From: Burkholderiales bacterium
GTDB lineage: Bacteria > Pseudomonadota > Gammaproteobacteria > Burkholderiales > SG8-41
Direction of reading: 5' to 3'
Assembly: GCA_046597455.1 (NCBI GenBank)
Contig: JBKJKJ010000337.1
Location: 1 to 52,062, forward strand
DNA: 52,062 nt
Part shown: positions 10,499 through 52,062 of the stretch, in pieces
Layout of the letters: every line of letters begins with the position of its first letter
How positions within the stretch are numbered: the first letter of the stretch is position 1
Notes under the pieces: model-generated
What the model saw: only the letters and a program-made list of their open reading frames with translations
The model's database searches: none
What the model was told of the DNA's origin: nothing
Position numbers and translations under genes: made by a program

Positions 10499-11137
10499 GT
10501 GCCCCGACCAGACCCTATCCTGATCGATCCTTCGCCCCGACTCGCCCTCGCCGCTACGCTCCTCGGCTGCCTGATGTTCGTCGGTCTCGCCACGGCCTCG
10601 GACGCGATTCTTCGAGCGCTGTCCGGAGAAGACGGAATCGTGGAGATCACTTCGGCGCTCGCCTATCCCGTGGGCGCGTTCTTCGCGCTGCGGCTCGCGA
10701 GGCATTCGCATGGGTGGGGGCGTGCCCACTGGATCATGTGGGTGGGCTTGTGCATATTGTTCTTCGGGGAGGAGACGAGCTGGCTGCAGCATGTAATCGG
10801 CTACACGACCCCAGACGCGATGAAGGCCGTCAACGCCCAGTCCGAATTCAACCTGCACAATCTGAACATCGTCACTGTCGACGGGGCGCTCATCGGCAAC
10901 GACGGCACCCTGACGTTCAAAGTCTGGCGGGATTCCCAGGTGCTCTTCTACCTGGGATTCACCACCTACTTTCTGCTGCTGCCGCTCGCCAGATCACTTC
11001 GATTCGTCGATGACATGGCGCAACGTCTTGCCGTTCCAGCGCTGAGCCGGCGCTTTCTGCTGATGGTCTGGATCCCGATTGCCGTGAGCGTCGCTTTCAC
11101 GTTCCTGGATCGGCACGAGCTTCTGCGAAAAAAATGA
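10499..11137 (+). CDS. Integral membrane protein, unknown function
   Basis: Several hydrophobic segments and a 'FFGEETSWLQH' motif. GTG start, so the start is uncertain. Confidence 0.5.
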   Translation: MPRPDPILIDPSPRLALAATLLGCLMFVGLATASDAILRALSGEDGIVEITSALAYPVGAFFALRLARHSHGWGRAHWIMWVGLCILFFGEETSWLQHVIGYTTPDAMKAVNAQSEFNLHNLNIVTVDGALIGNDGTLTFKVWRDSQVLFYLGFTTYFLLLPLARSLRFVDDMAQRLAVPALSRRFLLMVWIPIAVSVAFTFLDRHELLRKK

Positions 11138-11285
11138 TCGGTGAGTCGCGCGAGATGATCTTCGCGCTGACCATCATGGCATTCATCGCCATCGCCTATC
11201 ATTTTGCGCGCCGCCGGAACGCGGCGCAAAGCTATACGCCCCCCATCCCGGGTCCCATTCCGCACAGCCCCGCTTGAAACCCTCG

Positions 11286-34090: not shown

Positions 34091-34435
34091 ATGCCCGGTT
34101 TCGAAATCGTTTTGGTGGTGTTCATCGTATTGCTCGCATGGCTCTGGCTCGACAGCCTCAAAGTGCGCGAAGTGGCAATCAGGACGGCCCGCGGGGCGTG
34201 CGAGTCGGAGGGTCTGCTGCTGCTCGACGACACGGTTGCGATTGCTGCCGTCAAGCTCTCGCGCGACGACGAAGGCCACGTGAAGCTGCAGCGCACTTAC
34301 GATTTCGAATACAGCGACACCGGCGACAACCGCCGCAAGGGCAGTGTCGTGCTGCTCGGCGCACGCGTCATCCTGTTCAACGTGGGCTTTCGCGAAACCC
34401 CTGTCGTGCGCAGCCTGCATTCCAATCATGAATAA
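34091..34435 (+). CDS. DUF3301-family small membrane protein
   Basis: N-terminal TM 'FEIVLVVFIVLLAWLWL', then 'REVAIRTARGACESEGLLLLDDTVA...YDFEYSDTGDNRRKG'. Start ATG at 34091 or 34067. Confidence 0.65.
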   Translation: MPGFEIVLVVFIVLLAWLWLDSLKVREVAIRTARGACESEGLLLLDDTVAIAAVKLSRDDEGHVKLQRTYDFEYSDTGDNRRKGSVVLLGARVILFNVGFRETPVVRSLHSNHE

Positions 34436-34449
34436 TCCACGGAGCCGTC

Positions 34450-35778
34450 ATGAAATTCCCGATCCGCGCTTTTCTGGGCCTGGTCGTCGCGCTCATGCCT
34501 TTGCACGCTGAGTCTCAGCCGAACATGAAATGGGTGACGAGCTGGGCGGCGTCAGCGCACGGGCCTTATCCGCTGGGCAGCGCGGCGGCGCAACCCGATC
34601 TCACGCGGGTCTTTCCTTCGGCACAGACCGGCGCGCAAGACCAGAGCTTCCGGTTGATCGTGCGTCCCGACCTCTGGGGCAGGCAGACGCGGCTGCGGTT
34701 CTCCAATGCTTTCGGCAGCACGCCGCTCACGCTCGACGGGGTTTTCGTCGGCGTACAGATGGGCAGCGCCGCGGTACTGCCGGGCACCAACCGACCGGTG
34801 CGCTTCGGCGGCAAACCAGAAGTGACCATCGCGCCCGGTGCGCTGGTATGGAGCGATCCGGTGGACCTGTCCTACATTCCCCAGCCCGAGTCGCTCGACC
34901 TTGCCGCGCACAAGATGGCGGTGAGCTTTCACGTCGCAGGCGAAAGCGGCCCGATGACCTGGCACGCGAAAGCGATGCAGACCTCCTACGTCACCGCGCC
35001 CGGCGCCGGATCGCAAGGGGCGGCAGAGGGCGAGTCGGCCTTTCCGTTCACCACGACCTCATGGTATTTCCTCGACGCCGTGGACATGATGGCGCCGGCC
35101 GCGACCCCCGTAATCGTCGCTTTCGGGGACTCGATCACCGACGGCACCAACTCGACTCTCAACGGCGATGACCGATGGCCCGACGTGCTGTCGCGCAGGC
35201 TGCACGCACGTCACGGCAACACCGTGTCGGTGGTGAACGCCGGCATCGGGGGCAACCAGGTTGCCGGCCCCACCGAATGGTCGCCGCAGAAACCCTATCG
35301 CGGCGGACCGCCCGCCGGTGAGCGGCTCGAGCGCGACGTGCTCAGTCTGTCGGGCGTGACCACCATCATCTGGCTCGAAGGCATCAACGACTTCAGCAAG
35401 AACGGCAACGCGACTGCGCAGACCGTGCAGTCGGAGATGCGGCAGATCGTCGGGCGTATGCGCTCGCGCCTGCCTGGCGTGCGGGTCATCGGCGCGACGG
35501 TGACTTCAGCACTCGGCAGCACGAGCGCGGCCCACGGTTTCCCGGAGCAGGATCAGAAGCGCAAAGCGCTGAACGATTTCATCCGCGCGTCCGGCGTCTT
35601 CGATGCGGTAGTGGATTTCGACACCGTGACGCTCGATGCAAAAAGCGGCGGTTTGAAGCCTGAATTCGTGCACGACACCACCACGGGCGGTCCCGGTGAC
35701 AAGCTCCATCCCAATCGGGGTGGCTACAACGCGATGGGAACGGCGATCGCGCTCGAGTTGTTGATGCCGAAGCGGTAA
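34450..35778 (+). CDS. Secreted SGNH/GDSL-family hydrolase with N-terminal beta-rich domain
   Basis: Signal peptide 'MKFPIRAFLGLVVALMPLHA'. Block I 'FGDSITDG', block II/III 'NAGIGGN' and 'EGINDF', block V 'DKLHPN'. Confidence 0.85.
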   Translation: MKFPIRAFLGLVVALMPLHAESQPNMKWVTSWAASAHGPYPLGSAAAQPDLTRVFPSAQTGAQDQSFRLIVRPDLWGRQTRLRFSNAFGSTPLTLDGVFVGVQMGSAAVLPGTNRPVRFGGKPEVTIAPGALVWSDPVDLSYIPQPESLDLAAHKMAVSFHVAGESGPMTWHAKAMQTSYVTAPGAGSQGAAEGESAFPFTTTSWYFLDAVDMMAPAATPVIVAFGDSITDGTNSTLNGDDRWPDVLSRRLHARHGNTVSVVNAGIGGNQVAGPTEWSPQKPYRGGPPAGERLERDVLSLSGVTTIIWLEGINDFSKNGNATAQTVQSEMRQIVGRMRSRLPGVRVIGATVTSALGSTSAAHGFPEQDQKRKALNDFIRASGVFDAVVDFDTVTLDAKSGGLKPEFVHDTTTGGPGDKLHPNRGGYNAMGTAIALELLMPKR

Positions 35779-35799: not shown

Positions 35800-36690
35800 T
35801 CACATCGACGCGCCTGCGACGGCGAGCGTTTTCTCACCTTCCGCTTTCCACAGCGCCGGATCGTCCTGGATCATGATCCGGTACAGGTGGCGCGTCTCTT
35901 TCATGTCGTAGTCGCCATTCGCCTGGTGCATGACACTGCGGTTGTCCCATACGACCATGTCGCCCATCAGCCATTTGTGGCGATATTCGTATTTCGCCTG
36001 CGTCGCGTGCGCCATCAGCTCTGCAATGAGGGCCAGCGCCGCGTCGTCCGCCATGCCGACGATGCCTTCGATGCGCACCGGATTGAGATATAGCCCTTTG
36101 CGGCCGTTCTCCGGGTGCGTGCGCACGATGGGATGCACGGCCGGAGGCGGCAATGCCTTGCGGCTGTCGTCGGACAGCGCGCGCATTTTGCGAGGGCTGT
36201 ATCTGCTTTCCCATACGTGCACCGCTTTCAGGCCTTCGATGCGCCGCTTAATCGCGTCGGGCAGGTCATCGTAGGCATTGTGCACGTTGACGAATTGCGT
36301 GTCGCCGCCGCGGCTCGGCAGCGAGACCGTGTGCAGCGCCGTCGCCCGCGGCGGACACGGATGGTTGGAGTGATCCGTATGAAACGACTCGCCGGCGATC
36401 TGATACTTCCCCGGCGCGATTTCGGTGTTCCTGATTTCGTAGACTTCCGGATGACCGAGTGCCCGTATGTCCTTGTGATGCTGCGACAGGAGCGGCCCGA
36501 AAATCTCGCCAGCGGCGGCGAACTGCGGCGGCAACAGTTTCTGGTCGCGGAACACCAGCACGTGAAAGCGCGCGAAGTCGGCGTTGAGTCGTGCTTTCAT
36601 CGCGTCCGTGATCGGCAGCCTCAAGTCGAGGCCGCGGATCTCGGCGCCAGTCTCGTGGGTGGAAAGCGGGGTGATCGTGTAATCGCTCAT
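35800..36690 (-). CDS. TauD/TfdA-family Fe(II)/2-oxoglutarate dioxygenase
   Basis: 'FHTDHS' (HxD), 'GGDTQFVN', 'VWDNRSVMH'. GGAGG lies 5 nt upstream of the ATG at 36690. Confidence 0.88.
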   Translation of the reverse strand: MSDYTITPLSTHETGAEIRGLDLRLPITDAMKARLNADFARFHVLVFRDQKLLPPQFAAAGEIFGPLLSQHHKDIRALGHPEVYEIRNTEIAPGKYQIAGESFHTDHSNHPCPPRATALHTVSLPSRGGDTQFVNVHNAYDDLPDAIKRRIEGLKAVHVWESRYSPRKMRALSDDSRKALPPPAVHPIVRTHPENGRKGLYLNPVRIEGIVGMADDAALALIAELMAHATQAKYEYRHKWLMGDMVVWDNRSVMHQANGDYDMKETRHLYRIMIQDDPALWKAEGEKTLAVAGASM

Positions 36691-36777
36691 CGTATCCTCC
36701 GTCGATAGGGGCATCCCGGCGGTCCTCCGGCGTCCCGCAATCCTCGCCCCGCCCTGTCGCGCAAGCGGGGTGGCGTG

Positions 36778-37962: not shown

Positions 37963-40089
37963 ATGTGGACCGAAGATCAGATGCGCTCGATCGGCAAAAT
38001 GCTAAACCCGCGCTCTATCGCAGTGGTCGGCGCATCCGCCAAGGGCGGCTATGGCGGGCGACTGCTGAACGCGGTGCTCAAAGCGAAAGATCGCGTTCGC
38101 ATCTACCCGGTGAATCCGAATTACGACGAAATCGCGGGCGTGAAATCGTACCGCAGCATTGCCGATCTTCCCGAAGCGCCGGATCTCATGGGCATCGTCG
38201 TTCCCTACACGCAGGTGATGGACGTGCTCAGGCAGGGCCACCAGAAAGGCGCGGGCTCTGCGGTGATCATCTCGGCGGGATTCGCCGAGCGCGGAACCGA
38301 TTCCGGTCTCGACCTGCAGCGCCAGGTCGGCGCATTCGCGCGCGAGTCCGGTTTGCGGGTCGCAGGCCCGAACTGCCTGGGTCTTGCCAACGTCAGAGAC
38401 GACATCTGGGCCACGGCGTCTTCGCGCACCCTGGGCGGCCTCACCGGTAACATTGCACTGGTGTGCCAGAGCGGTGCGACCGCTTTCGGCCCTTTCCTTC
38501 TGCGCGCGGTGGATGCCGGCATCGGCCTGAGTCACATCATTTCCACCGGCAATGAAACCGATCTCGATTTCGCCGATTTCGCCCGCTACCTGATCGACGA
38601 CGCGCAAACGCGGGTGATCGCCGGTTTCGTCGAAGGCTTCAAGGACGTGCGCAAATTCATCGCGGTGGCCCGTCTCGCGGCCGAGCGCGGCAAGCCCATC
38701 GTGCTCATCAAGATCGGCCGCTCCGAGTCCGGCGCCCAGGCCGCACGCTCGCACACCGCGGCGATGACCGGCGCAGATGCGCTGTACGAAGCGGTGTTCA
38801 GGCAATACGGCGTGATTCGCGTGCAGGACTACGACGAGCTGCTCGAAGTGGCCCATCTACTCGCGCAAAGCAAAAAGCCGCAGAAACCGGGCATCGCGGT
38901 CGTTTCGCATTCGGGCGGCATTAGCTCGCTCACCGCGGACATGCTCGGGCAGGCGGGGCTCGATCTGCCGCGCCTGAGCGACGGCGCGCGCGATGGCATC
39001 AACGGCATACTCAAGGATTTCGGCTGGGCCGCGAATCCTGCAGACGTGACCGGTTTCGCGCGAGGCGAACATTTCCCACGAATCATGGACTACATGATCG
39101 AGGAGCCTCAGGTCGGCACCCTCGTCGTCGCCAGCGCAGGCGCAGGCAATCAGGTCGAGCAGGTGATCGCCCTGCGCGACCGCACCGACAAGAACGTCGC
39201 GTTCTTCTTCACGGCCAGCCGCAACGACAAGGTGCTGGCCGGACTGAAACAGGCGGATATCCCGATTTTTTATTCGCCCGAGAAGCTCGCCAGCGGTCTG
39301 AAGCGTCTGATCGATTATCACGCGTGGCGCGAGACCTATCTCGCCACCGGCCGCGCGCAGGCGTGCGCGCTCACCGGCGACCAGATCGCTGCGGTACAAG
39401 CGCTCAGCGGTCTGGGCCGCTCAGCGCTGTCCGAAAGCGAAAGCAAGCAGTTGATCGCCGCATGGGGCGTGCCCGCATCGCGGGAGGCGCTGGTGCAATC
39501 GGCGGGTGACGCAGTCACGGCGGCGCGGCGTCTGGGCTACCCGGTCGCGCTCAAGGCCGACTCGCCGGACATCCTCCACAAGACCGAAGCCGGCGTCGTG
39601 CGGCTCGGGCTGAAGAGCGACGACGACGTGCGCCTCGCCTACGACGAAATCATCGCGAATGCGAAAAAGCACGCGCCGAATGCGGGCACGCCGGGCGTAT
39701 CCGTGCAGGAAATGGTGACCGGCGGTGTGGAAGTCATCGTCGGCATCAAGTACGACGCGCAGCTCGGGCCGATGCTGCTTTTCGGAAGCGGCGGCGTCAT
39801 GGTCGAAGTGTTCAACGACGTCGCATTGCGCCACTGCCCGATCACCCGGGCGCAGGCGCAGGCGATGATCGGCGAGGTCAAGGGCGCGAAGCTGCTGCGT
39901 GGGTTCCGCGGAAAGCCCCCCGCCGATATCGAAGCGCTGGCCGACATCCTCGTGCGCGTGTCGCAGATGGCGGTTCAGCTCGAAGGCCGGCTCGCCGAGC
40001 TCGATATCAACCCGCTGATGGTGCTGCCTGCGGGCGCAGGCGTGAAAGCGGTCGACGCGCTGGTGGTACTCGACGAAAAATCCCGATAA
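37963..40089 (+). CDS. ADP-forming acyl-CoA synthetase (CoA-binding, succinyl-CoA-ligase-like and ATP-grasp domains)
   Basis: 'PRSIAVVGASAKGGYGG', 'VCQSGA', 'STGNE' and a C-terminal ATP-grasp ('GYPVALKADSPDILHKTEAGVVRLGL'). An in-frame GTG at 37957 with GGAGGA 6 nt upstream is an alternative start. Confidence 0.88.
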   Translation: MWTEDQMRSIGKMLNPRSIAVVGASAKGGYGGRLLNAVLKAKDRVRIYPVNPNYDEIAGVKSYRSIADLPEAPDLMGIVVPYTQVMDVLRQGHQKGAGSAVIISAGFAERGTDSGLDLQRQVGAFARESGLRVAGPNCLGLANVRDDIWATASSRTLGGLTGNIALVCQSGATAFGPFLLRAVDAGIGLSHIISTGNETDLDFADFARYLIDDAQTRVIAGFVEGFKDVRKFIAVARLAAERGKPIVLIKIGRSESGAQAARSHTAAMTGADALYEAVFRQYGVIRVQDYDELLEVAHLLAQSKKPQKPGIAVVSHSGGISSLTADMLGQAGLDLPRLSDGARDGINGILKDFGWAANPADVTGFARGEHFPRIMDYMIEEPQVGTLVVASAGAGNQVEQVIALRDRTDKNVAFFFTASRNDKVLAGLKQADIPIFYSPEKLASGLKRLIDYHAWRETYLATGRAQACALTGDQIAAVQALSGLGRSALSESESKQLIAAWGVPASREALVQSAGDAVTAARRLGYPVALKADSPDILHKTEAGVVRLGLKSDDDVRLAYDEIIANAKKHAPNAGTPGVSVQEMVTGGVEVIVGIKYDAQLGPMLLFGSGGVMVEVFNDVALRHCPITRAQAQAMIGEVKGAKLLRGFRGKPPADIEALADILVRVSQMAVQLEGRLAELDINPLMVLPAGAGVKAVDALVVLDEKSR

Positions 40090-41465: not shown

Positions 41466-42470
41466 ATGGTGAAACGACCGATGTCGAACCGACGCCTGAT
41501 AACCGCGGCCTGGCTTCTTCTGGCCGTCACCGCAGCGACCCCTGCGGCCCATGCGCAGACTCCCGCCGCCGCCTATCCGACTAAGCCCGTGCGCATCATC
41601 GTGCCCGTTGCTGCCGGGGGTAACGTGGATATCGTCGCGCGTACCCTGGCGCACCGGCTGGGCGAAAGCATGGGCCACCAGGTGATCGTCGATAACCGGC
41701 CCAGCGCGAGCAGCCTGGTCGGCACCCAGCTCGTCGCGAAATCGGCGCCGGACGGATACACGCTCCTGGCCATTGCCAACACCTTCGCATCCGCGCCCGG
41801 AATTCTGGCGAACCCGGGCTACGATCCGGTAAAAGACTTCGCCGGCGTCTCACTGACCGCGCGCATCCCGATGATCCTGGTGGTCAATCCCAACCTGCCG
41901 GTGCGCACGGCGCAGGAGCTGATCGCGCTCGCCAGGAAGCGTCCCGGAGAGCTCGCGTATGCATCCTCGGGAACCGGATCAACCGGCCACATCGCAGCCG
42001 AGATGTTCTCGCGTCAGGCGGGGATCAAGATGCTGCACGTGCCATACAAAGGCAACGCCCAGTCGCTCGTCGATCTGGTGGGCGGACAGGTCATGCTCAT
42101 GTTCGATCAGGTCAGCACGTCGAGCCCGCACGTCAAAGCGGGCAAGCTGCGGCCGCTCGCGGTGACGACGCTCACGCGGGCACCGCTGTTTCCCGACGTG
42201 CCGACACTCGATGAATCCGGCCTGCGCGGCTTCGAAGACGTCACGTTCAATGGACTCCTGGCGCCTGCGGGCACGCCCGGCGCCATCCTCAATCGCCTCC
42301 ACGCCGAAGTCGCGAAAGCGGTGAAGCTTCCCGAAGTGCGCAAGCGCTTCGACGACCAGGGCATCGAGCTCGCCTCGAGCGCTTCTCCTGAAGCCTTCAC
42401 CGCCTACATCAAGGCGGAAGTCGCGAAGTACGCGAAGCTCGCGCGCGAAGCGGGCATCAAGGCGGAATAA
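41466..42470 (+). CDS. Bug/TctC-family substrate-binding protein
   Basis: 'AAHAQTPAAAYPTKPVRIIVPVAAGGNVD...VDNRPSASS...APDGYTLL'. Confidence 0.92.
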   Translation: MVKRPMSNRRLITAAWLLLAVTAATPAAHAQTPAAAYPTKPVRIIVPVAAGGNVDIVARTLAHRLGESMGHQVIVDNRPSASSLVGTQLVAKSAPDGYTLLAIANTFASAPGILANPGYDPVKDFAGVSLTARIPMILVVNPNLPVRTAQELIALARKRPGELAYASSGTGSTGHIAAEMFSRQAGIKMLHVPYKGNAQSLVDLVGGQVMLMFDQVSTSSPHVKAGKLRPLAVTTLTRAPLFPDVPTLDESGLRGFEDVTFNGLLAPAGTPGAILNRLHAEVAKAVKLPEVRKRFDDQGIELASSASPEAFTAYIKAEVAKYAKLAREAGIKAE

Positions 42471-42508: not shown

Positions 42509-44827
42509 GTGCAGGTTGACGATATTCGATCGCAGGGGCTGCGCCAGGCGGCGGATGCGCTCGCAGCGGTTCCGCTTTTCGCCGGCCTGAACCCCGTCGA
42601 TCTCGCGAAGCTGGCGGGGGTGCTGGAAGACCGCTGGCTCGATGCCGGCAGCGTCGTGTTCGAAGCGGGAAGCGAAGGCGATGCGCTGTACATTCTGCGC
42701 GAAGGCACGGCCGAGCGGCGGGTGGCGGGCTCCGCACTCGAGCTCGTTCATCCGCCTGCGATCTTCGGCGAGCTCGCGCTCATCACCGACGCACCGCGCT
42801 CGGCGACCATCGTTGCCGTCACGCCGCTACGGCTGTGGGTATTGCCGCGCCAGCGTTTCGCACCACTCGTGCGCTCGGAACCCGAGCTCATGCTTCATCT
42901 GGGCACTGCCGTCGGCATGGATCTCGCGCGCACGCGTCGCGCGCTCGGCGAGTTGCAGGGCGAGCTCGACAGGTGGCTCGCCGATCGCCTGAACGCACTG
43001 CCCGAGGACGAGCGCGAGCTCATCGAAGCGGGCTCGTTCTTCGAGCGCCCGCCGCTGCGCGTGCTCCAGCGGCTCGCACCGATGGAACCGGCGCTGCACG
43101 GCTTGCAGGAATCCGCACGCGTCTCGGGTCTGTGGCATACCGATGAAACCGGCCTGTATGTTCCCGCGGCGGTGCGCAGCGCCGTGCAAAGACATCTGCG
43201 GGGTGCGCGCCGGGAGCGTGCGCTGCAGACGCGCCTTTGCGACGTGGCACGACAACTCGAGCGGGAAGGCTACGCCGCTGAAGCCGCTCTGACCTACGCT
43301 GTGGCCGGCGCAACAGCGGAGGCGCGCCGCCTGACAGGCGCCTCCGCTGCGCGAGCCGACGCCACGGATGCCGAAATCCTCCCCGGTCCGACACACGACG
43401 CCAACGGCGGCACGCCACCCGCGACGGGTTCGCGCCTGGCGGGCATCTCGCGCTTCGTGTGGATGGCCGTCGCGCTCGTTCCGCTCCTCTTCTGGAATGC
43501 GGCCCCACCCGAGGACCTGAGCCTCGCGGGCTGGCGCATGCTGCTCACGGTCGTAGCCGCGGCTATCCTGTTTGCATCGGAAGCCCTTCCCGAAGCGGTC
43601 GTCGGACTCGCACTCCTCGCAGCGTGGGTGGTCACGGGCATCGCCGAGCCGCGCCTGGCGCTCGACGGCTTTGCGACTCAGGCGTGGGTGCTCGTCCTCG
43701 CTGTGCTCGCGGTCGGGGTGCCCGTGGGGAATTCGGGTCTGCTCTATCGGGTCGCGCTACTCGCGCTGGGCCGCAAGCCCGCAAGCTTTGCCTCACGGTG
43801 TCTCACCCTCGGGCTGGTCGGCACGGCAGTTACGCCTACTCTACCCAACGCGACGAGCCGCATGGCGCTCGCCGCGCCGCTGGTTCGCGAAGTGGCGGCC
43901 GCGCTCGGCTATACCCCCGGCGGACGTGCCGCGACCGGTCTCGCACTCGCCGCCCTCATCGGTTTCGGGCAGATGTCGGGACTCTTCCTCACCGGATCGT
44001 CGGTGGGCCTGCTGCTGCACGGTCTGCTGCCCGCGTCCGTTCGCGCCGATTTCGGCTTCACCGGCTGGATGGTGGCAGCGCTGCCGCTGCATCTCATCCT
44101 GTTCGCTTCCTCCATGCTGATGGTAATCGCGCTCTATCGCCCGCACGATGCGCCGGCCGATGCCACCCACCGTCTCGCGCTCCAGCACGAAGTGCTCGGG
44201 CCGATACGCCGTGACGAGATGTGGTGTCTCGCCGTCCTGGTCGCGCTCATCGTCGGCTTTCTCACCGAGCCGCTGCACGGCGTGCACGGTGCGTGGCTGG
44301 GCGTGGGCGCGCTCGTCGTCCTCTCCGTTGCCGGCAGACTGGACGCCGGCATGTTGCGAACGGGCGTCAACTGGAGCTTTCTCATTTTCTTTGGCGTCAT
44401 CACCAGCCTCGCCACGGTGTTCAATGCACTGAAGATCGATGCCTGGCTGGCGGCGAGCCTGAGCGGCCCGGTCAGCGCGCTCTCCGGCAACGCGCTGGTG
44501 TTCTGTCTCGCACTGGCGCTCGTGGGTTTCGCGCTCGCCTTCGTCGTGCGCTGGCAGGCAGCTGCACCGCTGCTGACGCTGGTCGCGATGCCCGTCGCCG
44601 GCGCCGTAGGCGTGCATCCTTTTCTGGTTGCGTTGATCGCGCTCGTGTCGACGCAGGTCTGGTTTCTGCCTTCCCAGAGCACGGTGTATCTGGCGCTTTA
44701 CCACGGCTCGGGCGAGCTCTACACCCACAAAAGCGTGCGGCCTGTCGCCTGGACGTGGGGCATTCTGGTGCTGCTGTCGATCGCAGCGTCGGTGCCGGTC
44801 TGGACCTGGATGGGACTGATCCGGTGA
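42509..44827 (+). CDS. Fusion protein: N-terminal cyclic-nucleotide-binding domain, helical linker, C-terminal SLC13/DASS-type permease
   Basis: cNMP domain 'VPLFAGLNPVDLAKLAGVLEDRWLDAGSVVFEAGSEGDALYILREG...IFGELALITDAPRSATIVA'. From about aa 330 onward there are roughly 10 or more hydrophobic segments with 'TPTLPNATSRMALAAPL'. GTG start. Confidence 0.8.
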   Translation: MQVDDIRSQGLRQAADALAAVPLFAGLNPVDLAKLAGVLEDRWLDAGSVVFEAGSEGDALYILREGTAERRVAGSALELVHPPAIFGELALITDAPRSATIVAVTPLRLWVLPRQRFAPLVRSEPELMLHLGTAVGMDLARTRRALGELQGELDRWLADRLNALPEDERELIEAGSFFERPPLRVLQRLAPMEPALHGLQESARVSGLWHTDETGLYVPAAVRSAVQRHLRGARRERALQTRLCDVARQLEREGYAAEAALTYAVAGATAEARRLTGASAARADATDAEILPGPTHDANGGTPPATGSRLAGISRFVWMAVALVPLLFWNAAPPEDLSLAGWRMLLTVVAAAILFASEALPEAVVGLALLAAWVVTGIAEPRLALDGFATQAWVLVLAVLAVGVPVGNSGLLYRVALLALGRKPASFASRCLTLGLVGTAVTPTLPNATSRMALAAPLVREVAAALGYTPGGRAATGLALAALIGFGQMSGLFLTGSSVGLLLHGLLPASVRADFGFTGWMVAALPLHLILFASSMLMVIALYRPHDAPADATHRLALQHEVLGPIRRDEMWCLAVLVALIVGFLTEPLHGVHGAWLGVGALVVLSVAGRLDAGMLRTGVNWSFLIFFGVITSLATVFNALKIDAWLAASLSGPVSALSGNALVFCLALALVGFALAFVVRWQAAAPLLTLVAMPVAGAVGVHPFLVALIALVSTQVWFLPSQSTVYLALYHGSGELYTHKSVRPVAWTWGILVLLSIAASVPVWTWMGLIR

Positions 44828-44907: not shown

Positions 44908-45777
44908 TTACTGCCGCGCCTGCATCACCGGCGCATCCGGCAACGATGCCAGCGTCGCGAGAAACTGCCCGGCAACCCGCTTTCGACCCGCGGCATTGAG
45001 ATGCCCGCCGTCGCTGCTCCACTCCGCCGCGAGAGCCGGAATCGTCGCGCCGTCGAGCACGCCGTATTCGAGCGTCCCGTCACTGCGTGTCGATTCGAGC
45101 GCCGCGAGATCGAACACCGTTTCCTTTCCGACGTAAGCGGCACGCAGCATTTCGTTGTACGCCTTGCGCTTCGCGTTCTCGTCGCGATGCGTCGGTATGC
45201 TGCGCACCGTGTTCATCCAGTAGCGCAGCCACGACGGCTCGGTCATCAGCGGAAGCGTCATGTGGACGACGGTCGCTTCAGGATGCCGGGCGCGTAGCGC
45301 CGAGACGGTCTGCCGATAGCGCTCGAACAGCTTTTTCGCATCGGTCTTCTCGTCGACATCGACGTAGCAATACTTGAACATGAGCACCGGCTGGGGCCCG
45401 AGCGCCCCCTGCGTCGCGGCGATAAAGGCAGCGTTCTTGGATTCCGGATCTTCGTTGCGCCCGATGGGGAACTCGTTGAGGACGCCGGCCGCCGCCGTCG
45501 GTTCTCCGGACACCACGCGAAGCTGGATCTGCGGCTTTTGTGCAGCCCACTCGCGAACACCTTCGATGATGTCGGCGCCGACCGATTGATGCCCGAAGTA
45601 GAACGTGCGCTGCGCGAGCTTCTGCCACTGCGCGGCCGTGATCTGATTCACGTCCATCACGGTTCGCACGCCGGGCGCGTCAGGCCGGCTCGAGCATCCC
45701 GCCAGAGGGACGAGGATTGCGAGCGTGGCGAGCAAGGCGGCGGTAGCGGTGGCGGTTCGGACGATTCCGATACGCAT
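44908..45777 (-). CDS. Lipoprotein, unknown function
   Basis: Lipobox 'LVPLAGC' after 'MRIGIVRTATATAALLATLAI'. GGAG lies 6 nt upstream of the ATG at 45777. Confidence 0.65.
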   Translation of the reverse strand: MRIGIVRTATATAALLATLAILVPLAGCSSRPDAPGVRTVMDVNQITAAQWQKLAQRTFYFGHQSVGADIIEGVREWAAQKPQIQLRVVSGEPTAAAGVLNEFPIGRNEDPESKNAAFIAATQGALGPQPVLMFKYCYVDVDEKTDAKKLFERYRQTVSALRARHPEATVVHMTLPLMTEPSWLRYWMNTVRSIPTHRDENAKRKAYNEMLRAAYVGKETVFDLAALESTRSDGTLEYGVLDGATIPALAAEWSSDGGHLNAAGRKRVAGQFLATLASLPDAPVMQARQ

Positions 45778-45873
45778 GAGGCACTCCGGGACGAGCGTGT
45801 GGCGCACATCATGATAGCGCCGTACGGGGGCGCCCTTACCTCGATTTCGCGCCCGCCACCCATGATGACGGTA

Positions 45874-46740
45874 TCAGCCGGATTTCGGAAATCCATACAA
45901 CGCTTCCGGATTCGACACCAGTATCCGGTTTCGCGTCGCTTCGTCCGGCGCCCAGAGCGTGAGCAGGTCGAAGAGCACTGCGTCATCGGGCGGGATCTCC
46001 GGCGTGGGGTGCGGCCAGTCGCTGCCCCATACGAGCCGCTCCGGCACCGCTTTCACGAAAGCCTGCGCAACCGCAGTGGCATCGTCATAACCCGGCGGCC
46101 CGACTTTCGTGTTCATGTAGGCGCCCGAGATTTTCATCCACGCTTTGCCCCGATCGATGAGGCCGCGTATCACTGGATGCGCGGGATGGTCGAGGCCCGA
46201 GAGCCCCAGCTTGCCCATGTGGTCGAACACGATCGGTGTGGGCAGGCGCTCGAGCAGGTTCGCGTTCTCGACAATCTGGTCGGATTCCATGTTGAGTTGC
46301 ACGTGCCAGCCCAGCGCGGCGATTTTTTCGGCCAGCGGCTCGATCATGTCGATGGAGGTCACGGCGGTTTTCGGATCGCCCACGGTGAACCGGATGCCGC
46401 GTATGCCGCCCGCGTCCAGTTTTTTCAGCTCCGCTACGCTGACGTCCGGACGCAGGACCGCCACCCCGCGCGCGTTGGAGATTCCGAGCTGCCCGATCGC
46501 GTCGAGCGTCACGCTGTTGTCGGTGACATAGTTGCGCGGTGTAACGATGACGACACGGGAGAAACCGATGCGCTGCTGGAGCAGCCGGTAATCCGCCACC
46601 GTGGAACGGGCCGGCCGCCCGACGGCCGGCGCAAAGCGCGGATCGTAGATATGGATATGGCAATCGGCAGCATTCGCGGGCGCTTCGAGCTTCGGCGGCT
46701 CGGTGCCGGACGAATTCGGCACGGCTTGTCGGGACGTCAC
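45874..46740 (-). CDS. Amidohydrolase-2 family (LigI/2-pyrone-4,6-dicarboxylate-hydrolase-like) protein
   Basis: 'DCHIHIYD' (HxH), 'IVFDHMG', 'WGSDWPHP'. I chose the GTG at 46740 (AGGAGG 9 nt upstream). The GTG at 46749 is an alternative. The track start at 46857 would overlap the upstream gene by 47 nt. Confidence 0.82.
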   Translation of the reverse strand: MTSRQAVPNSSGTEPPKLEAPANAADCHIHIYDPRFAPAVGRPARSTVADYRLLQQRIGFSRVVIVTPRNYVTDNSVTLDAIGQLGISNARGVAVLRPDVSVAELKKLDAGGIRGIRFTVGDPKTAVTSIDMIEPLAEKIAALGWHVQLNMESDQIVENANLLERLPTPIVFDHMGKLGLSGLDHPAHPVIRGLIDRGKAWMKISGAYMNTKVGPPGYDDATAVAQAFVKAVPERLVWGSDWPHPTPEIPPDDAVLFDLLTLWAPDEATRNRILVSNPEALYGFPKSG

Positions 46741-46810
46741 GGTGTTCACCCTCCTTTTTCGATGGCGCGGATCAGTCGATCCGCGACGAGTGCCGCCGTG
46801 ATGATCGCCA

Positions 46811-47725
46811 TCAGTTTCGGCTGCCGGCCTGCGCGAGCGCCGATTTCTTTTCCGCATCGCGCTTTGCGCAGGCCTCCGCCGTAGCGAGGACGACGATCGC
46901 CCACTCGTCGACCGGCACGTCGATCATGCGCCCATCGAGCGGCACGGCAGCAGTCCCGGCGGCAACACCGGCGGCAAATGCTTCCCGCACACGCTGGTTG
47001 TAGGCGACGAGCTCAGGCGTGGGCGTGAACGCCGCGTTCACCGGGGCCACCCAGCTCGCATGCGGACAGATAACGCCTTTCATGCCGAGGTTTTTCGCCG
47101 TCGTGGCCATCGTCTGTAAATCCGACTGCTCCGCATCGGCCTGCTGGCGAACGCTCATGGGGTAGGCCATGCCCACCGCGGCAACGCGTGCAGCGGTCGC
47201 TTCGACCGCGAGCCGGCCCCTCGAGTACACGAACGGATCGTAAGCCGGATGCGGATCGATGCCGAGGTCCTGCGCCAGCGCGCGCTCGTCCAGGCCCGCC
47301 TGCGAGACACGCGGATCCGCGGTGACGATCGACCGGATGTCCCATACGCCCCGCGCCGAGCCGAGCATCACGATGAAGCTGAGCGCGCCCGCGGCGATGT
47401 CGCGCTCTTTTTCGAGCGCGGCCACAGCCTGGGCTGCTTCCACCACCTCTGCCGCCTGCACAGGCGAGAGCATGATTCCGCTCAGTCCGAACCATACCGA
47501 TGCTTCGATATCCTCGAGTGCGCTGTCCGGCCTCACCTTGACGAAGACCTCGGCGGCGCCCTGGCGCGCGGCGGCGATCGCATCCTTGATCGCGCCGGGT
47601 GCAACGGCCTTCGCGCCCGTGAGATCCAGCGTAATCGCGTCGGCATTGTGGCGCCATGCGTGGGCAACACCCTCGGCATCGGTGATCGGAACGAGAAGAT
47701 TGGAACGGCGCACGAGAATCGACAT
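46811..47725 (-). CDS. HpcH/HpaI aldolase / citrate-lyase-beta (CitE)-like paralog A, with degenerate active-site motifs
   Basis: 'RRSNLLVP...ADAITLDLTGAK...VFVKVR' aligns with CitE-family N-terminal motifs but lacks DLED. There is no purine-rich SD; the leader is the CATCAC repeat. Confidence 0.75.
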   Translation of the reverse strand: MSILVRRSNLLVPITDAEGVAHAWRHNADAITLDLTGAKAVAPGAIKDAIAAARQGAAEVFVKVRPDSALEDIEASVWFGLSGIMLSPVQAAEVVEAAQAVAALEKERDIAAGALSFIVMLGSARGVWDIRSIVTADPRVSQAGLDERALAQDLGIDPHPAYDPFVYSRGRLAVEATAARVAAVGMAYPMSVRQQADAEQSDLQTMATTAKNLGMKGVICPHASWVAPVNAAFTPTPELVAYNQRVREAFAAGVAAGTAAVPLDGRMIDVPVDEWAIVVLATAEACAKRDAEKKSALAQAGSRN

Positions 47726-47772
47726 GAATGAGGGGATGCCGTGATGGAGTGATGAGGTGATGAAGTGATGCG
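47726..47772 (+). repeat. Tandem 8-nt repeat array, GTGATGNN on the + strand, 4 clean and 2 degenerate units
   Basis: gaatgagg ggatgcc GTGATGGA GTGATGAG GTGATGAA GTGATGCG. It fills the 60-nt gap between the CitE-like B stop and the CitE-like A start. Confidence 0.85.
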
Positions 47773-47785
47773 GATCGGGCCGACG

Positions 47786-48760
47786 CTATCTGGGGTACGC
47801 CGGCTGGGACGCCTTGAACGTCGGGGACGCCTTGACGCGCGCGAGAGCCTCGGCTTTTTCTTGATTGCGCTCGGCGCACAGCCGGGCCCATTCCAGCAAC
47901 TCGAGCGCCCGCGCCGCTTCGTAGCGGTCGATCACGCGTCCTTCGATCTCGACCCACGTATCGCGCGTGCCTTCGATCTCGGCGTAATGCTCCAGCACCG
48001 CATGCGCATCCCGGACATCGTCCTCGCTCGGCGTGAGACCCACGTTGTGCCCGTCGACGACCGCCGGGTTGAGTCCGCCCCCGCCGAGCCGCAAGCCGCA
48101 CTGGCGGGCCGCTTCAGCCAGTCGCAAGGCACGGTCGGGATCGCTGACGCTGCCGGTTGTATTCGCGACGAACGGCGCCGTGCGCACGCCCAGGTCGAGC
48201 GTGCGTGCCGCGAGCTCGGCCTCCCCTTTCGGATACACGAACTGGTCGAAGTCGACAAACATCTCGACGCCGAGATCGCGCGACAGATCGTAGCCGCCCG
48301 TGGTCGCGCCGAATTCGCGCACGCGGGGGCTGGCCGATGCGATCTCGAAGACGTTGGTGACCCCGATCGCCGTCTCGATGCTCGCATCGATTTCGATCGT
48401 TCCCGGCGGAATGCCGCGCTCGTTCTCCAGGCGCGTGATGATGTCGTCGAGCGCGCATATCTCGTGGGCGTATTCGGCCTTGGGATATTTGATCCGCTTC
48501 AAGCCCGGCCAGACGACCGCTTCGGTATCCGCCAGCATGTGCTCGTGGTTGATGCGCGCAAACGCTTCGGCGCCGCCTTTCGATACGTTCGCAATTGCCT
48601 CCCTGACCAGCGTGCGCGCATGCGCTTTCAGATGCTGCGGGACCGAGTCCTCGAGATCGAGAACGATGAAATCGCATCCGCGCCGCCACGCGTTGTCGAC
48701 GAATCGCGGGGTGACCACGGGCATCGTCAGTCCGGAACGGCGTACTGTTTTTTGGGCCAT
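47786..48760 (-). CDS. HpcH/HpaI aldolase / CitE-like (malyl-CoA-lyase-like) paralog B, with canonical motifs
   Basis: 'RRSGLTMP', 'CDFIVLDLEDSV', 'AFARIN', 'RIKYPKAE', 'IDASIETA', 'GGYDLSRDLG'. GGAG lies 6 nt upstream of the ATG. Confidence 0.88.
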   Translation of the reverse strand: MAQKTVRRSGLTMPVVTPRFVDNAWRRGCDFIVLDLEDSVPQHLKAHARTLVREAIANVSKGGAEAFARINHEHMLADTEAVVWPGLKRIKYPKAEYAHEICALDDIITRLENERGIPPGTIEIDASIETAIGVTNVFEIASASPRVREFGATTGGYDLSRDLGVEMFVDFDQFVYPKGEAELAARTLDLGVRTAPFVANTTGSVSDPDRALRLAEAARQCGLRLGGGGLNPAVVDGHNVGLTPSEDDVRDAHAVLEHYAEIEGTRDTWVEIEGRVIDRYEAARALELLEWARLCAERNQEKAEALARVKASPTFKASQPAYPR

Positions 48761-48865
48761 GTTTTACTCCAGCAAGTCGCTCATCCCCGTGAGGATTGTT
48801 CCGTGAGATCGACAGCGCCCGGGTGGGGCCGGCTTGCGCCGGCATGACGCATCGATCGACTGATT

Positions 48866-49594
48866 TCAGCTGTACGCGCGGTTGAGCGGCTGCACCTGGT
48901 CGTCCTGAAGGCACATCGCGCCCCTGAACCCTATCGCCCGCCCCCGCTGCGCGGCCGCATACGTATTATCCGGCGTCGCGAACAGTCCGCGATCAGGTGC
49001 GCGCCACCAGGCTCCAATCGGAGTGACGCCGGCGGCGCCGGCAATAATGATCAGGCGCTGCATCAGGTAAGGCATGAGATGAATCTCGCCGGACGGTTCC
49101 GGACGCAGATCCATGATCAGGTCGGCGCGCCCGAGGGTCACGCCCCACACCCGATCACTCGCACGCACGATGTCGTAAGCAGCATGGTTGCCGGGCGCGG
49201 TTTCGACGGCCGGCACGATGGTCACCGTGTTCGGCGCGACCCCGTGCTCCTTCTCGAGCATCGTCAGCGATGCAGCGATCTGCTCGATCTGCTGCGCCGA
49301 TTCAGTGCGCGAGACCACCACGCCGCTCAACCCCGACCACACACAGGCACTCAAGTCCGCATCGACGGATTGCGGCTCGATCTGAACGAACACTTCAGCG
49401 CCGGCGGATTGCGCAGCGATCAGCGCAGCCTGAACCTTGCCGCGCGCTGCGGGCTTGTCCCTGTCCGCGACAAGCTCGACGAGATCGAGGACGATGACGT
49501 CGGCACCCGACTTAGACGCGCGCTCGAGCTCGCCACGCCTGGACACGGGCACGAGCAGCCACGAGCGGCGTGTTCTTTGTTCTGTGATTCTCAT
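48866..49594 (-). CDS. HpcH/HpaI aldolase / CitE-like paralog C, with partly degenerate motifs
   Basis: 'RRSWLLVP', 'ADVIVLDLVELV', 'VFVQIE', 'IVPAVETA', 'LGRADLIMDL'. GAGGAG lies 3 nt upstream of the ATG. Confidence 0.82.
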   Translation of the reverse strand: MRITEQRTRRSWLLVPVSRRGELERASKSGADVIVLDLVELVADRDKPAARGKVQAALIAAQSAGAEVFVQIEPQSVDADLSACVWSGLSGVVVSRTESAQQIEQIAASLTMLEKEHGVAPNTVTIVPAVETAPGNHAAYDIVRASDRVWGVTLGRADLIMDLRPEPSGEIHLMPYLMQRLIIIAGAAGVTPIGAWWRAPDRGLFATPDNTYAAAQRGRAIGFRGAMCLQDDQVQPLNRAYS

Positions 49595-49682
49595 GCTCTC
49601 CTCACTGCAGTGACGCGGCTGCGCCGAAGCCGCTCGCTGGCCCGGCGATGCTAAGCCGTTTTCCGCCGCCGTTCAACCGCGT

Positions 49683-50861
49683 TCATCCGGCCAGGCGCCG
49701 AACCGCCTTCAGCCGCTGGCTCGCGTCCCCTGCGAGATGCGTCCAGATGATGGCATCGCGCACGAGCTTGTCGGCCATCGCATCGATCACACCGCCCGAC
49801 ACGGTGTGAATATCGAGATTCAGGCCGCTCACACGCTGGATCACGGTCGTCGAGTAGTTCATCAACAGCACCGCGTTGACACCCTGCAGTTTGTGGTCCA
49901 TCTCCCACGCCGTGCGCATCACGTACGAGCGCAGCGCTTCGGTCAGCATGTGCATTTCGTTCAGCTTCAACTGCACCAGTTGCTGGTCGTACAGGCGTTT
50001 GCCGCCGCGCCGCTCCGTTTTCGCAAAGCGCATGGCCGCCTCGCATGCCGCGTCGCACACGCCGAGCGCATTGGCCGCGAGCTCGAAGTCGCCGAACTCG
50101 CCTGCAGCGCCGCTGCGCACTTTCACCCCCCCGTGCACCTCGCCGACCACGTTGGCGTGCGGCACCCTCGCGTTGTCGAAGACGAGCTCGGCGTTCTGAT
50201 AGAAGCGCCATCCGCTCTTGTTGAAAATCTTGCCGACCCGGAAACCCGGCGTGTCGCTCGGCACGAGGAATACGGTCGTCCCCTCGCGTATGGACACGTC
50301 GGGATCGGTACGCGTACTGACGAAAAACAGTTTGCCGACGCTGCCATTGGCGATGAAGGTCTTCTCGCCGTTGAGTATCCAGTCGTCGCCGGCGCGCTCG
50401 GCGCGCAGCCGCCAGCCCGACTTCGGCGCATCGGCAGGCGGATAGCGATTGTCCGAACCCGCGTTGGGCTCGGTGCTGGCGGAGCCGATCACATACGTGT
50501 CGTCAGCCATGAAAGGCCTGAGGAAACGCGCCTTCTGGTCGTTCGTGCAGAACTCGGCGATGAGGTGGCTCCACTTCCAGTTCTGGCTGAAAGCCTTGGA
50601 TATCGCGCTGTCACCTTTGGCGAGTTCCGTCATCACCAGCCCCTGCGTGACGAAATCAGTGCCGGGTCCACCCCACTCCCGGGGCACGGCGAGCGTGCGA
50701 AAACCCAGCGCCGAACCTTTCCGGATGATGTCCCAATCCCACGGCTCGTATCCGCCTCCGATCCGGTCGCGCTTCAGCGCAATTGGTCGAATCTCCTCCT
50801 GGGCAAACTCGCGCGCTTTCATCTGCCACGCCTGCTGGTCAGCGCTCAGCGAAAAATCCAT
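49683..50861 (-). CDS. Acyl-CoA dehydrogenase family protein
   Basis: 392 aa. 'EWGGPG', 'TEPNAGSD', 'W(I)LNGEKTFI(A)NG' and the C-terminal helical domain are typical of ACADs. GGAG lies 5 nt upstream of the ATG. Confidence 0.9.
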   Translation of the reverse strand: MDFSLSADQQAWQMKAREFAQEEIRPIALKRDRIGGGYEPWDWDIIRKGSALGFRTLAVPREWGGPGTDFVTQGLVMTELAKGDSAISKAFSQNWKWSHLIAEFCTNDQKARFLRPFMADDTYVIGSASTEPNAGSDNRYPPADAPKSGWRLRAERAGDDWILNGEKTFIANGSVGKLFFVSTRTDPDVSIREGTTVFLVPSDTPGFRVGKIFNKSGWRFYQNAELVFDNARVPHANVVGEVHGGVKVRSGAAGEFGDFELAANALGVCDAACEAAMRFAKTERRGGKRLYDQQLVQLKLNEMHMLTEALRSYVMRTAWEMDHKLQGVNAVLLMNYSTTVIQRVSGLNLDIHTVSGGVIDAMADKLVRDAIIWTHLAGDASQRLKAVRRLAG

Positions 50862-50976: not shown

Positions 50977-51055
50977 CACATCACTCCATCACTCCATCAC
51001 CCCATCACGCCCTCACCGCATCACCGCATCCTGCATCACTGCATCACCGCATCAC
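50977..51055 (+). repeat. Tandem 8-nt repeat array, NNCATCAC on the + strand, about 10 units; reverse complement of the 47726-47772 array
   Basis: caCATCAC tcCATCAC tcCATCAC ccCATCAC gcCCTCAC cgCATCAC cgCATCC tgCATCAC tgCATCAC cgCATCAC. It sits in the divergent intergenic region between the ACAD gene (-) and the M64 peptidase gene (+). Confidence 0.9.
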
Positions 51056-51127
51056 CTGTAAGCTTTCAACCGTCGAGTGTAAGTCCGAATAAACCGTGAC
51101 GTCCATGCAACTGCCGGAGATTCATCG

Positions 51128-52062
51128 ATGCAAGCCACGCGGCGGCGCTGGCTGAGATACGCCGCGACAGCGGGTGCGTCGCTGTTCCTGGCGGCGTGCG
51201 AACGCGGCCGCCCGGGATCGAATGCCGGTCGCACCCGCCCACCGGCCGAGCAAGGCGCCCTGCGCTTCGACTTTCGCCACTTCATTGCGAGCGGCACCGA
51301 ACATTTCTCGCTCGTCCGGCTGCGCGCCGAACCGCTGTGGTCGGGCTCACGGGCGCGGGGCCTCGCGATGCCCGACTGGGGAGACTATCGGTTTTCCGTA
51401 TTCGATTCCGAAAGCGGCGACCCGCTGTTTCGATCAGGATTCGACAGCAACCTGGATCGCGGTGCGCAATCGAATGCCACGCAGGTCAGCATTCGCATTC
51501 CGGCCCCGGACCGGGCGGTAAACGCCGTGATCGAACGACGGCGCGCCACCGGAGTTTTCCAGCCGGTGTGGGACGGTACGATCGATCCGGCTGACAGCGC
51601 GATCGACCGCTCGCAATCCGCGCTGCGCACGCGGGTCGACACGATCCTGTCGAACGGCGAGCCCGCCGCGAAGGTCGACATCGCGATACTCGGCGATGGC
51701 TATGTCGAATCCCAGTATCCGAAGTTCATCGCCGATGCCCGACGGGCGGCCGAATACCTCTTCTCGGTCGATCCGTTCAAAAAGCGTGTGCAAGACTTCA
51801 ACGTGCACTCCGTTTTCGCGGCCAGCACGGACGCGGGCGTCACCGATCCGTATCTCGGCCTGCGAAAAGACACCGTGTTCGGGTGCGGCTACCAGGCAGG
51901 CATGGCGGAGCGCACGCTTGCCGTGGGCGATGAGACGGCGCTGCGCGAAGCGGCGACCGCGGCGCCGTACGACTTCCTGCTCGTGATCGCGAACGCGCGC
52001 CGTTACGGCGGCAGCGCGTATTTCGGGGGTCCTGCGGTGGTCTCGGTCGACAGCGCGGCCGC
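51128..52062 (+). CDS. Peptidase M64 (IgA-peptidase-like) family protein with Tat-type signal and lipobox; 3' end lies outside the window
   Basis: My own translation of the open frame that runs off the window end: 'MQATRRRWLRYAATAGASLFLAAC...', then 'VDIAILGDGYVESQYPKFIADARRAAEYLFSVDPFKKRVQDFNVHSVF...APYDFLLVIANARRYGGSAY', which matches M64 family blocks. GGAGA lies 7 nt upstream of the ATG. Confidence 0.8.
   Translation, partial: MQATRRRWLRYAATAGASLFLAACERGRPGSNAGRTRPPAEQGALRFDFRHFIASGTEHFSLVRLRAEPLWSGSRARGLAMPDWGDYRFSVFDSESGDPLFRSGFDSNLDRGAQSNATQVSIRIPAPDRAVNAVIERRRATGVFQPVWDGTIDPADSAIDRSQSALRTRVDTILSNGEPAAKVDIAILGDGYVESQYPKFIADARRAAEYLFSVDPFKKRVQDFNVHSVFAASTDAGVTDPYLGLRKDTVFGCGYQAGMAERTLAVGDETALREAATAAPYDFLLVIANARRYGGSAYFGGPAVVSVDSAA

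Follow-up and report, generated by a model that had tools for sequence, protein, structure and literature searches.

Three CitE-like paralogs encoded together in a Burkholderiales genome as candidate subunits of one hetero-oligomeric acyl-CoA lyase

We analyzed a 52,062-nucleotide (nt) stretch of DNA from a Burkholderiales bacterium (contig JBKJKJ010000337.1; hereafter, the window) and focused on the interval 45874-50861, which encodes three CitE-like proteins, here called paralogs A, B, and C or, together, the trio. The interval holds five open reading frames (ORFs), all on the minus strand, in the order acyl-coenzyme A (CoA) dehydrogenase (ACAD), C, B, A, and amidohydrolase (AH); lengths are in amino acids (aa):

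49683-50861, minus strand: ACAD, 392 aa; Pfam Acyl-CoA_dh_N, _M, and _1, each above its cut-off
48866-49594, minus strand: paralog C, 242 aa; Pfam HpcH_HpaI, 86.8 bits
47786-48760, minus strand: paralog B, 324 aa; Pfam HpcH_HpaI, 80.9 bits
46811-47725, minus strand: paralog A, 304 aa; Pfam HpcH_HpaI, 39.7 bits
45874-46740, minus strand: LigI-type AH, 288 aa from GTG 46740; Pfam Amidohydro_2, 166 bits

The profile scores of A, B, and C exceed the curated cut-off of HpcH_HpaI (PF03328, 25 bits) and place all three in the CitE-like superfamily. They share an RRSxL block and are only 30-32% identical to one another, and we therefore regard them as old paralogs. None reaches the NCBIfam equivalog cut-off for CitE (TIGR01588), RipC/Ccl (NF038242), or haloarchaeal malyl-CoA lyase (NF041626); the best score among them is that of B against citE (107 bits, cut-off 443). 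A sequence-only reading of this DNA had described five co-directional genes with short gaps, and this holds: the gaps are 88 nt (ACAD-C), 105 nt (C-B), 60 nt (B-A), and 70 nt (A-AH). The last value takes GTG 46740, which is preceded by an AGGAGG ribosome-binding site, as the start of AH. The longest ORF, from ATG 46857, would overlap gene A by 47 nt and add an Arg-rich leader, and GTG 46740 is likely the true start. The GC content at third codon positions (GC3) is 0.77-0.82 across the five genes. A promoter and terminator scan of the operon found no sigma-70-like site and no minus-strand terminator-like site inside the block, which weakly favors co-transcription.

In solved CitE-like lyases, the active site is assembled in trans from the triose-phosphate isomerase (TIM) barrel of one subunit and the C-terminal lid hairpin of its neighbor. 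The Arg and the Mg-binding Glu and Asp belong to the barrel and the catalytic Asp to the lid, and activity requires both the trimer and the lid swap. We set the catalytic positions of A, B, and C by aligning them to these structures. The Arg of an R-I/V-N strand aligns with Arg76 of Rhodobacter sphaeroides malyl-CoA lyase, and the Asp of a C-terminal hairpin, G-R-x-(I/V)-D, aligns with its Asp299; both residues are conserved throughout the superfamily. The counterpart of Arg76 in Mycobacterium tuberculosis Rv2498c is Arg64, and the Mg ligands there are Glu112 and Asp138. The paralogs compare as follows:

Paralog B, minus strand: first motif DLED (48641-48664); Arg position RIN (48542-48562); PK; Mg ligands ET (IET, 48368-48382) and D (YDLSRDLG, 48269-48298); lid GRVID (EGRVIDRYE, 47918-47944)
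Paralog C, minus strand: first motif DLVE; Gln (QIE) for Arg; SR for PK; Mg ligands ET (VET, 49196-49210) and D (RADL, 49106-49135) kept; GAWWRAPDRG (48986-49015); no lid
Paralog A, minus strand: first motif DLTG; Lys for Arg; SP for PK; Mg ligands lost (GS, Ala); lid DGRMIDVPVDEW present (46901-46936)

Hence, in the window, the catalytic Arg occurs in B only, the Mg ligands in B and C (A carries Gly and Ala there), and the lid hairpin with its Asp in A (GRMID) and B (GRVID), C ending after the barrel. The motifs quoted in the sequence-only reading are all in place: VLDLEDSV, FARIN, YPK, SIET, and YDLSRDLG in B; VLDLVELV, VQIE, AVET, and ADLIMDL in C; and TLDLTGAK, VKVR, and LDERALAQDLG in A, which has MLGSARG and so no ET. 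The best solved relative of B is malyl-CoA lyase 5ugr (E=3e-17). The six catalytic barrel residues and the lid Asp of B are present in 53/53 orthologs from the surveyed loci and in 120/120 closest database homologs. Judged by these alignments, B is the only canonical catalytic CitE-like barrel of the trio, with a C-terminal lid of its own.

The exact B sequence of the window matched no recorded contig, and genomic context was taken from homologs instead. Hundreds of B homologs at 73-87% identity were found in metagenomes. We surveyed 55 loci, one genome per species, and all carried a metagenome-assembled genome (MAG) label except 'Burkholderiaceae bacterium isolate RE-10' (42% identity). The lineages are Betaproteobacteria/Burkholderiales, one Rhodospirillaceae bin, two Streptomycetaceae-labelled bins, many Chloroflexota (Dehalococcoidia, SAR202), and an Alcaligenaceae-labelled subgroup at about 40% identity. 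The trio recurs in about 50 independent loci of Betaproteobacteria, Rhodospirillaceae, and Chloroflexota (SAR202 among them), in the orders C-B-A, C-B...AH-A, or C-A-B. C was found in 52 and A in 49 of the 53 loci with enough flanking sequence; in 42 loci C immediately precedes B, and 10 loci have the order C-A-B. No cultured host for the trio was identified among the genomes surveyed, and a plasmid search with B yielded no trio, all hits being distant, generic 'CoA ester lyase' genes with 29-35% identity. The divergent subgroup (L047-L058, MAGs labelled Alcaligenaceae or 'Bordetella parapertussis') has the order C-A-B; its C keeps the Arg (DLEY/RVD), its A lacks both Mg ligands, and a family III CoA-transferase takes the place of an ADP-forming ligase.

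Members of the trio also occur as single polypeptides. An exhaustive search of cluster representatives returned three C-B fusion proteins, P0121 (638 aa), P0126 (645 aa), and P0138 (612 aa), and an in-frame B-A fragment, P0150. P0121 is present on six contigs from different samples, followed by A and a convergent ligase. C-B fusions lie at 9660-11576 of locus L062 and at 373-2211 of locus L065; the A that follows the latter is too decayed for the Pfam family to be recorded, yet it keeps the lid GRMID. A further protein, P0273 (763 aa, on a 3-kb contig), joins a truncated B-type domain to cytochrome c domains and could be either an assembly chimera or a genuine fusion.

We next consider how barrel and lid are conserved in each paralog. 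The window A keeps 1/6 catalytic barrel residues, and its closest relatives keep 5/6. Among the 120 closest homologs of A, the lid Asp is kept in all, and a complete barrel (6/6) in only 47, with scores spread from 0 to 6 and many different substitutions among the decayed proteins. By this survey, a dead barrel is not a family trait of A; many relatives are fully intact, and the window A is an extreme case. In the proteobacterial clade, the lid of A is 81% identical and its barrel 59%; B shows 75% identity in the barrel and 60% in the lid. The most constrained pieces of the trio, measured in this way, are the barrel of B and the lid of A. An AlphaFold2 model of A (predicted local distance difference test score 86.6, predicted template modeling score 0.84) places the hairpin at residues 260-269, and the folds closest to it are those of citramalyl-CoA lyase, malyl-CoA lyase, and CLYBL. 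A is thus predicted to retain the full CitE-like subunit fold, including the lid hairpin.

C presents the opposite picture. The window C matches Pfam positions 1-218 of 221 and stops at the end of the barrel, with the whole C-terminal lid missing, a point that the sequence-only reading had not made. A length of 241-251 aa is common to its proteobacterial orthologs, and some Chloroflexota C proteins are about 313 aa long and have a lid. The loss of the lid by a local frameshift was considered and rejected, given this shared length and a C-B gap of only 105 nt. A GAWWR-like motif is present in 43 of 46 C orthologs. C is more than a degenerate copy: the altered barrel, with DLVE, Gln for Arg, the Mg ligands, and GAWWR, is conserved in its own right, and the true defect is the missing lid. 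As this site has no superfamily Arg, it is unlikely to carry out canonical cleavage.

The state of the C lid and the state of the A barrel vary together. In a first set of loci, the lid of some Chloroflexota C proteins carried the Asp, and A had a 6/6 barrel wherever it did (8/8 loci); where the C lid was absent or carried Thr, A was intact in 1 of 33. At least three to four independent losses of the C lid are visible on the B tree. For a follow-up test, six homologs with an intact A were picked without knowledge of their C. Two of them (L069 and L071, proteobacterial-type by sequence) proved to have a C with the lid Asp (GDRLIDRG), in a third (L067) C has no lid, and in the other three (L066, L068, and L070) A is unlinked from C-B. 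In total, A is intact in 10/10 loci with a C lid Asp and in 4/37 without; L069 and L071, two of those ten, were retrieved after the prediction and chosen only for an intact A. A strict rule, in which loss of the C lid always kills the A barrel, was relaxed after the survey of 120 homologs and the exceptions given below.

We hypothesize that A, B, and C are obligate partners in a single hetero-oligomeric lyase that cleaves a beta-hydroxyacyl-CoA in the manner of the malyl-/citramalyl-/citryl-CoA lyases, and we assign this a probability of roughly 0.6. The assembly would probably take the form of an A-B-C heterotrimer or of two such trimers paired, its stoichiometry and ring order being deduced from complementary conservation and from the fusions. 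B would provide the canonical barrel. The lid of A would close the barrel of B, while A's own barrel would be dead in this genome. C would be a lid-less barrel with a Mg site and without the enolate-stabilizing Arg; closed by the lid of B, it would form a second, non-canonical site. The resulting ring would have the A barrel covered by the C lid, the B barrel by the A lid, and the C barrel by the B lid, and loss of the C lid would leave the A barrel uncovered and free to decay. This order explains the decay of the A barrel after loss of the C lid, the invariant A lid, the retained lid Asp of B, and the conserved lid-less barrel of C. The alternative order is excluded because it would put the lid of C on the barrel of B, yet the lid of C is dispensable and the barrel of B is invariant.

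Comparative genomics supports a hetero-oligomer well. The sequence-only reading had already proposed one, built of one catalytic and two degenerate paralogs, and that part gains from the conservation of the trio, the C-B fusions, and the complementarity of barrels and lids. Its description of the partners must be amended, since the dead barrel of A is not a family trait and C is not simply degenerate. Several observations also count against the hetero-oligomer itself. As B is complete in both barrel and lid, a B homotrimer might in principle be active by itself. The 47 intact A barrels (39% of 120) exceed the neutral-decay expectation, and the A barrel must therefore still work in many lineages, possibly as an A homotrimer. 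The coupling between C and A is not absolute, with an intact A and no C lid Asp in L017, L062, L067, and the L009/L070 pair, and the lid and barrel counts ignore phylogeny. A is unlinked from C-B in several genomes, where it accompanies an amidohydrolase and the ligase (L066, L068, and L070). The A-type genes at these three loci are catalytically intact, and their neighbors are a LigI-type amidohydrolase, a D-2-hydroxyacid dehydrogenase, a thiamine diphosphate (ThDP) enzyme, PrpD-family genes, and the same ligase. L070 (A) and L009 (a C-B locus) belong to one MAG, and the trio can thus be split over two loci.

The completeness of B, the separate coding of A in some genomes, and the fact that all solved relatives are homotrimers or homohexamers would also suit two assemblies, in which B is a self-sufficient homotrimer, and A and C associate together or dock on B3 (a second trimer stacked on it, for instance) and serve in regulation or in a second step, with the lid of A closing the barrel of C. 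A C-B fusion fits a C3 trimer stacked on a B3 trimer as well. However, a closed three-fold A/C ring at equal stoichiometry cannot give every C barrel an A lid, and such an arrangement leaves unexplained why the A barrel is always intact where C has the lid Asp. The lid of B is also less conserved than its barrel, while the lid of A is the most conserved of all, which is in keeping with the A lid, and not the B lid, serving the most constrained site. We consider two assemblies unlikely.

We regard as very improbable that the trio represents three independent homo-oligomeric enzymes for consecutive steps (for example, a lyase, a thioesterase, and another activity), kept together by a shared pathway. 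Tandem paralogs are common in catabolic clusters, and Mcl1 (a lyase) and Mcl2 (a malyl-CoA thioesterase) of Rhodobacter sphaeroides are likewise CitE-like paralogs that share one pathway with separate activities. Unlike the trio, Mcl1 and Mcl2 are each complete enzymes, and the malyl-CoA thioesterase clade has its lid Asp changed to Glu, whereas the trio keeps the lid Asp and loses whole barrels or lids. A homotrimer of C would have neither lid nor catalytic Asp, one of the window A would have neither Arg nor Mg ligands although its lid Asp is invariant, and the C-B fusions also speak against independence. We give still less credence to A and C being functionless, decaying duplicates beside a B that alone matters. 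The window A does keep only one of six catalytic residues, and A and C evolve faster than B (66-69% versus 83-85% identity to the closest relatives). Nevertheless, both are intact ORFs of conserved length with a coding-type GC3 of 0.77-0.78, both are retained across phyla, the lid of A is 81% conserved and its predicted fold is confident, and C has conserved family-specific motifs.

The genes that accompany the trio bear on the substrate of the proposed heteromeric lyase. Three nearby genes of the window lie beyond the operon:

37963-40089, plus strand: ADP-forming acyl-CoA ligase, ~708 aa; Pfam CoA_binding_2, Succ_CoA_lig, and ATP-grasp_5
41466-42470, plus strand: TctC-family periplasmic solute receptor; Pfam TctC, 250 bits; a candidate for substrate uptake
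42509-44827, plus strand: N-terminal cyclic-nucleotide-binding domain fused to a DASS/CitMHS-type anion (di-/tricarboxylate) transporter, 772 aa; between the ligase and the lyase operon

Over 57 non-redundant loci, we counted a TctC receptor in 35, an ADP-forming acyl-CoA ligase in 25, a family III CoA-transferase in 16, an AH ortholog in 13, a ThDP enzyme in 8, an MmgE/PrpD-family protein in 7, and an ACAD in 4. The constant partner of the trio in these neighborhoods is a CoA-activating enzyme, either the ligase or the CoA-transferase, and the substrate of the trio is therefore expected to be a CoA ester. The sequence-only reading had instead grouped the ACAD, the three CitE-like genes, and the LigI-type gene as one block, whose conservation as a unit the counts for ACAD (4/57) and LigI-type genes (13/57) do not bear out; from the same counts, the conserved unit is the trio plus a CoA-activating enzyme.

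The window ligase is an ortholog of the trio-adjacent ligases of the 25 loci, to which it is 51-81% identical. In other loci the ligase usually follows A directly and is convergent with it; in the window it lies about 6 kb outside 45874-50861, with a protease gene, the TctC gene, the transporter gene, and a GDSL-family gene in between. It has the fused alpha-beta architecture of ADP-forming acyl-CoA synthetases, and among solved proteins it is nearest to the ADP-forming 4-hydroxybutyrate-CoA and 3-hydroxypropionate-CoA ligases; it scores below the equivalog cut-offs (470 versus 1300 bits). Its start is likely ATG 37963, as the longest ORF, from 37675, would add an implausible Arg/Ser-rich N-terminus of 96 residues. 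Other loci encode ThDP enzymes related to acetolactate synthase and glyoxylate carboligase, a D-2-hydroxyacid dehydrogenase, a flavin mononucleotide-dependent dehydrogenase, and MmgE/PrpD-family proteins. These 2-oxo- and 2-hydroxy-acid enzymes would fit a malyl-/citramalyl-CoA-type cleavage that yields an acyl-CoA and a 2-oxo acid.

The LigI-type identity of AH suggested by the sequence-only reading stands. The catalytic motifs of LigI are HxH, RGIRF, DHMG, and DWPHP, with RGIRF supplying the carboxylate-binding arginines. AH aligns with LigI, a 2-pyrone-4,6-dicarboxylate hydrolase and its best solved relative (4d8l, E=1.6e-39), at DxHxH, RGIRF, DHMG, and DWPHP. It falls far below the cut-off of the only NCBIfam equivalog that it matched, 4-sulfomuconolactone hydrolase (152 versus 500 bits), and no lig-type neighbors were present among the flanking genes scanned in the window or in related loci. 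The AH ortholog often directly adjoins A, with a 4-nt overlap in L005. Together with the RGIRF motif, this adjacency suggests that the acid stems from a carboxylated lactone in these lineages. AH is probably a lactonase acting on a carboxylated lactone and an optional but recurrent partner of the trio.

The ACAD adjoins the trio only in the window and in its close relatives L001 and L007 and, more distantly, in L021 and L022. At the position of the catalytic Glu376 of medium-chain acyl-CoA dehydrogenase it has Ala ('IWTHLAGDAS' versus 'IYEGTS', aligned to 'iyEGts' in 4u83) and thus does not have the catalytic Glu at that site. The base may instead sit elsewhere, possibly near 'AGEFGDFE' in the manner of isovaleryl-CoA dehydrogenase, or the protein may fall outside the classical dehydrogenases.

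Taken together, an undescribed degradation route for this gene set is plausible. The acid, probably a hydroxy-di- or tricarboxylic acid, would be imported through the TctC system, and in this genome the LigI-type hydrolase may first release it from a carboxylated lactone. The ADP-forming ligase would convert it to the CoA thioester, which the lyase would cleave to an acyl-CoA and a 2-oxo acid, and the ACAD, apparently a lineage-specific addition, may act on the acyl-CoA. In a tentative and more specific version, which we hold to be possible but somewhat doubtful, C/B/A and the ligase would constitute an unrecognized, widespread system for ATP-dependent cleavage of hydroxy-polycarboxylates. The heterotrimer would have a canonical site (B barrel/A lid) and an Arg-less Mg site (C barrel/B lid) performing a second reaction on the product or the substrate, and A would be a pseudoenzyme kept only as a lid donor.

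We compared the trio with known systems. Like the homo-oligomeric CitE-like lyases, namely malyl-CoA lyase (4L9Y, 4L80, 5UGR), (S)-citramalyl-CoA lyase (RipC; PA0883, 8KHL), M. tuberculosis Rv2498c, and human CLYBL, it has the fold of a TIM barrel with a C-terminal helix/hairpin/helix lid (barrel only in C), and B has their catalytic set of DLED, Arg, Glu/Asp Mg ligands, and lid Asp. In contrast to these enzymes, which have one kind of subunit, the trio comprises three co-inherited paralogs, each without a different element. Citrate lyase (CitDEF) likewise holds a CitE-type subunit within a heteromeric complex, but CitD (acyl carrier protein) and CitF (transferase) have unrelated folds, whereas the trio subunits are all CitE paralogs; no citD or citF lies nearby, and activation would be by a CoA ligase or CoA-transferase. 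Malate thiokinase with malyl-CoA lyase, and citryl-CoA synthetase with citryl-CoA lyase (the two-enzyme ATP-citrate lyase), follow a similar logic of ATP-dependent formation of a hydroxyacyl-CoA and subsequent Claisen-type cleavage. The trio differs from these pairs in that its ligase belongs to the fused ADP-forming acetyl-CoA-synthetase family rather than the succinyl-CoA-synthetase type, and in that its lyase is CitE-like and, as proposed, heteromeric. AH shares the fold and the aligned catalytic motifs of LigI (4D8L) outside a protocatechuate 4,5-cleavage context. No heteromeric or pseudoenzyme-containing CitE-like lyase was found in the limited literature collection that we searched.

All characterized CitE-like lyases (malyl-CoA lyase, citramalyl-CoA lyase, Rv2498c, and CLYBL) are described as homo-oligomers. 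If the trio is an obligate heteromer, it would offer a case of a subunit kept only for the lid that it gives to the active site of a neighbor, and the stages of barrel decay could be followed from lineage to lineage. The trio is found in many uncultured bacteria of soil and sea; uncultured Burkholderiales from soil and groundwater commonly carry it, as do Chloroflexota, among them SAR202. Its genes are labelled publicly as 'citrate lyase subunit beta/citryl-CoA lyase' or 'aldolase/citrate lyase family protein'; with all three labelled as citrate lyase-type, automated metabolic reconstructions probably miscount them as three separate lyases. Once the substrate is known, the module of uptake receptor, ligase, and lyase that recurs in these organisms could be assigned a function.

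Four further genes in the window had no link to the trio in other loci:

51083-52060, plus strand: M64-family peptidase
44908-45807, minus strand: GDSL-type hydrolase
35800-36777, minus strand: GDSL-type hydrolase
34432-35778, plus strand: TauD-family dioxygenase

The M64-family peptidase gene is divergent from the ACAD gene and is also present in the syntenic locus L001. We also observed two arrays of an 8-nt unit, CATCACNN. One, of about 10 copies, is upstream of the ACAD gene in the divergent region (50979-51056); the second, of about 4 copies in the opposite orientation, lies at 47733-47770 in the B-A gap. The arrays gave eight matches versus 0 expected in shuffles, and the unit is absent from the rest of the window and from 65 other loci examined. 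They may bind a regulator or be repeats prone to slippage.

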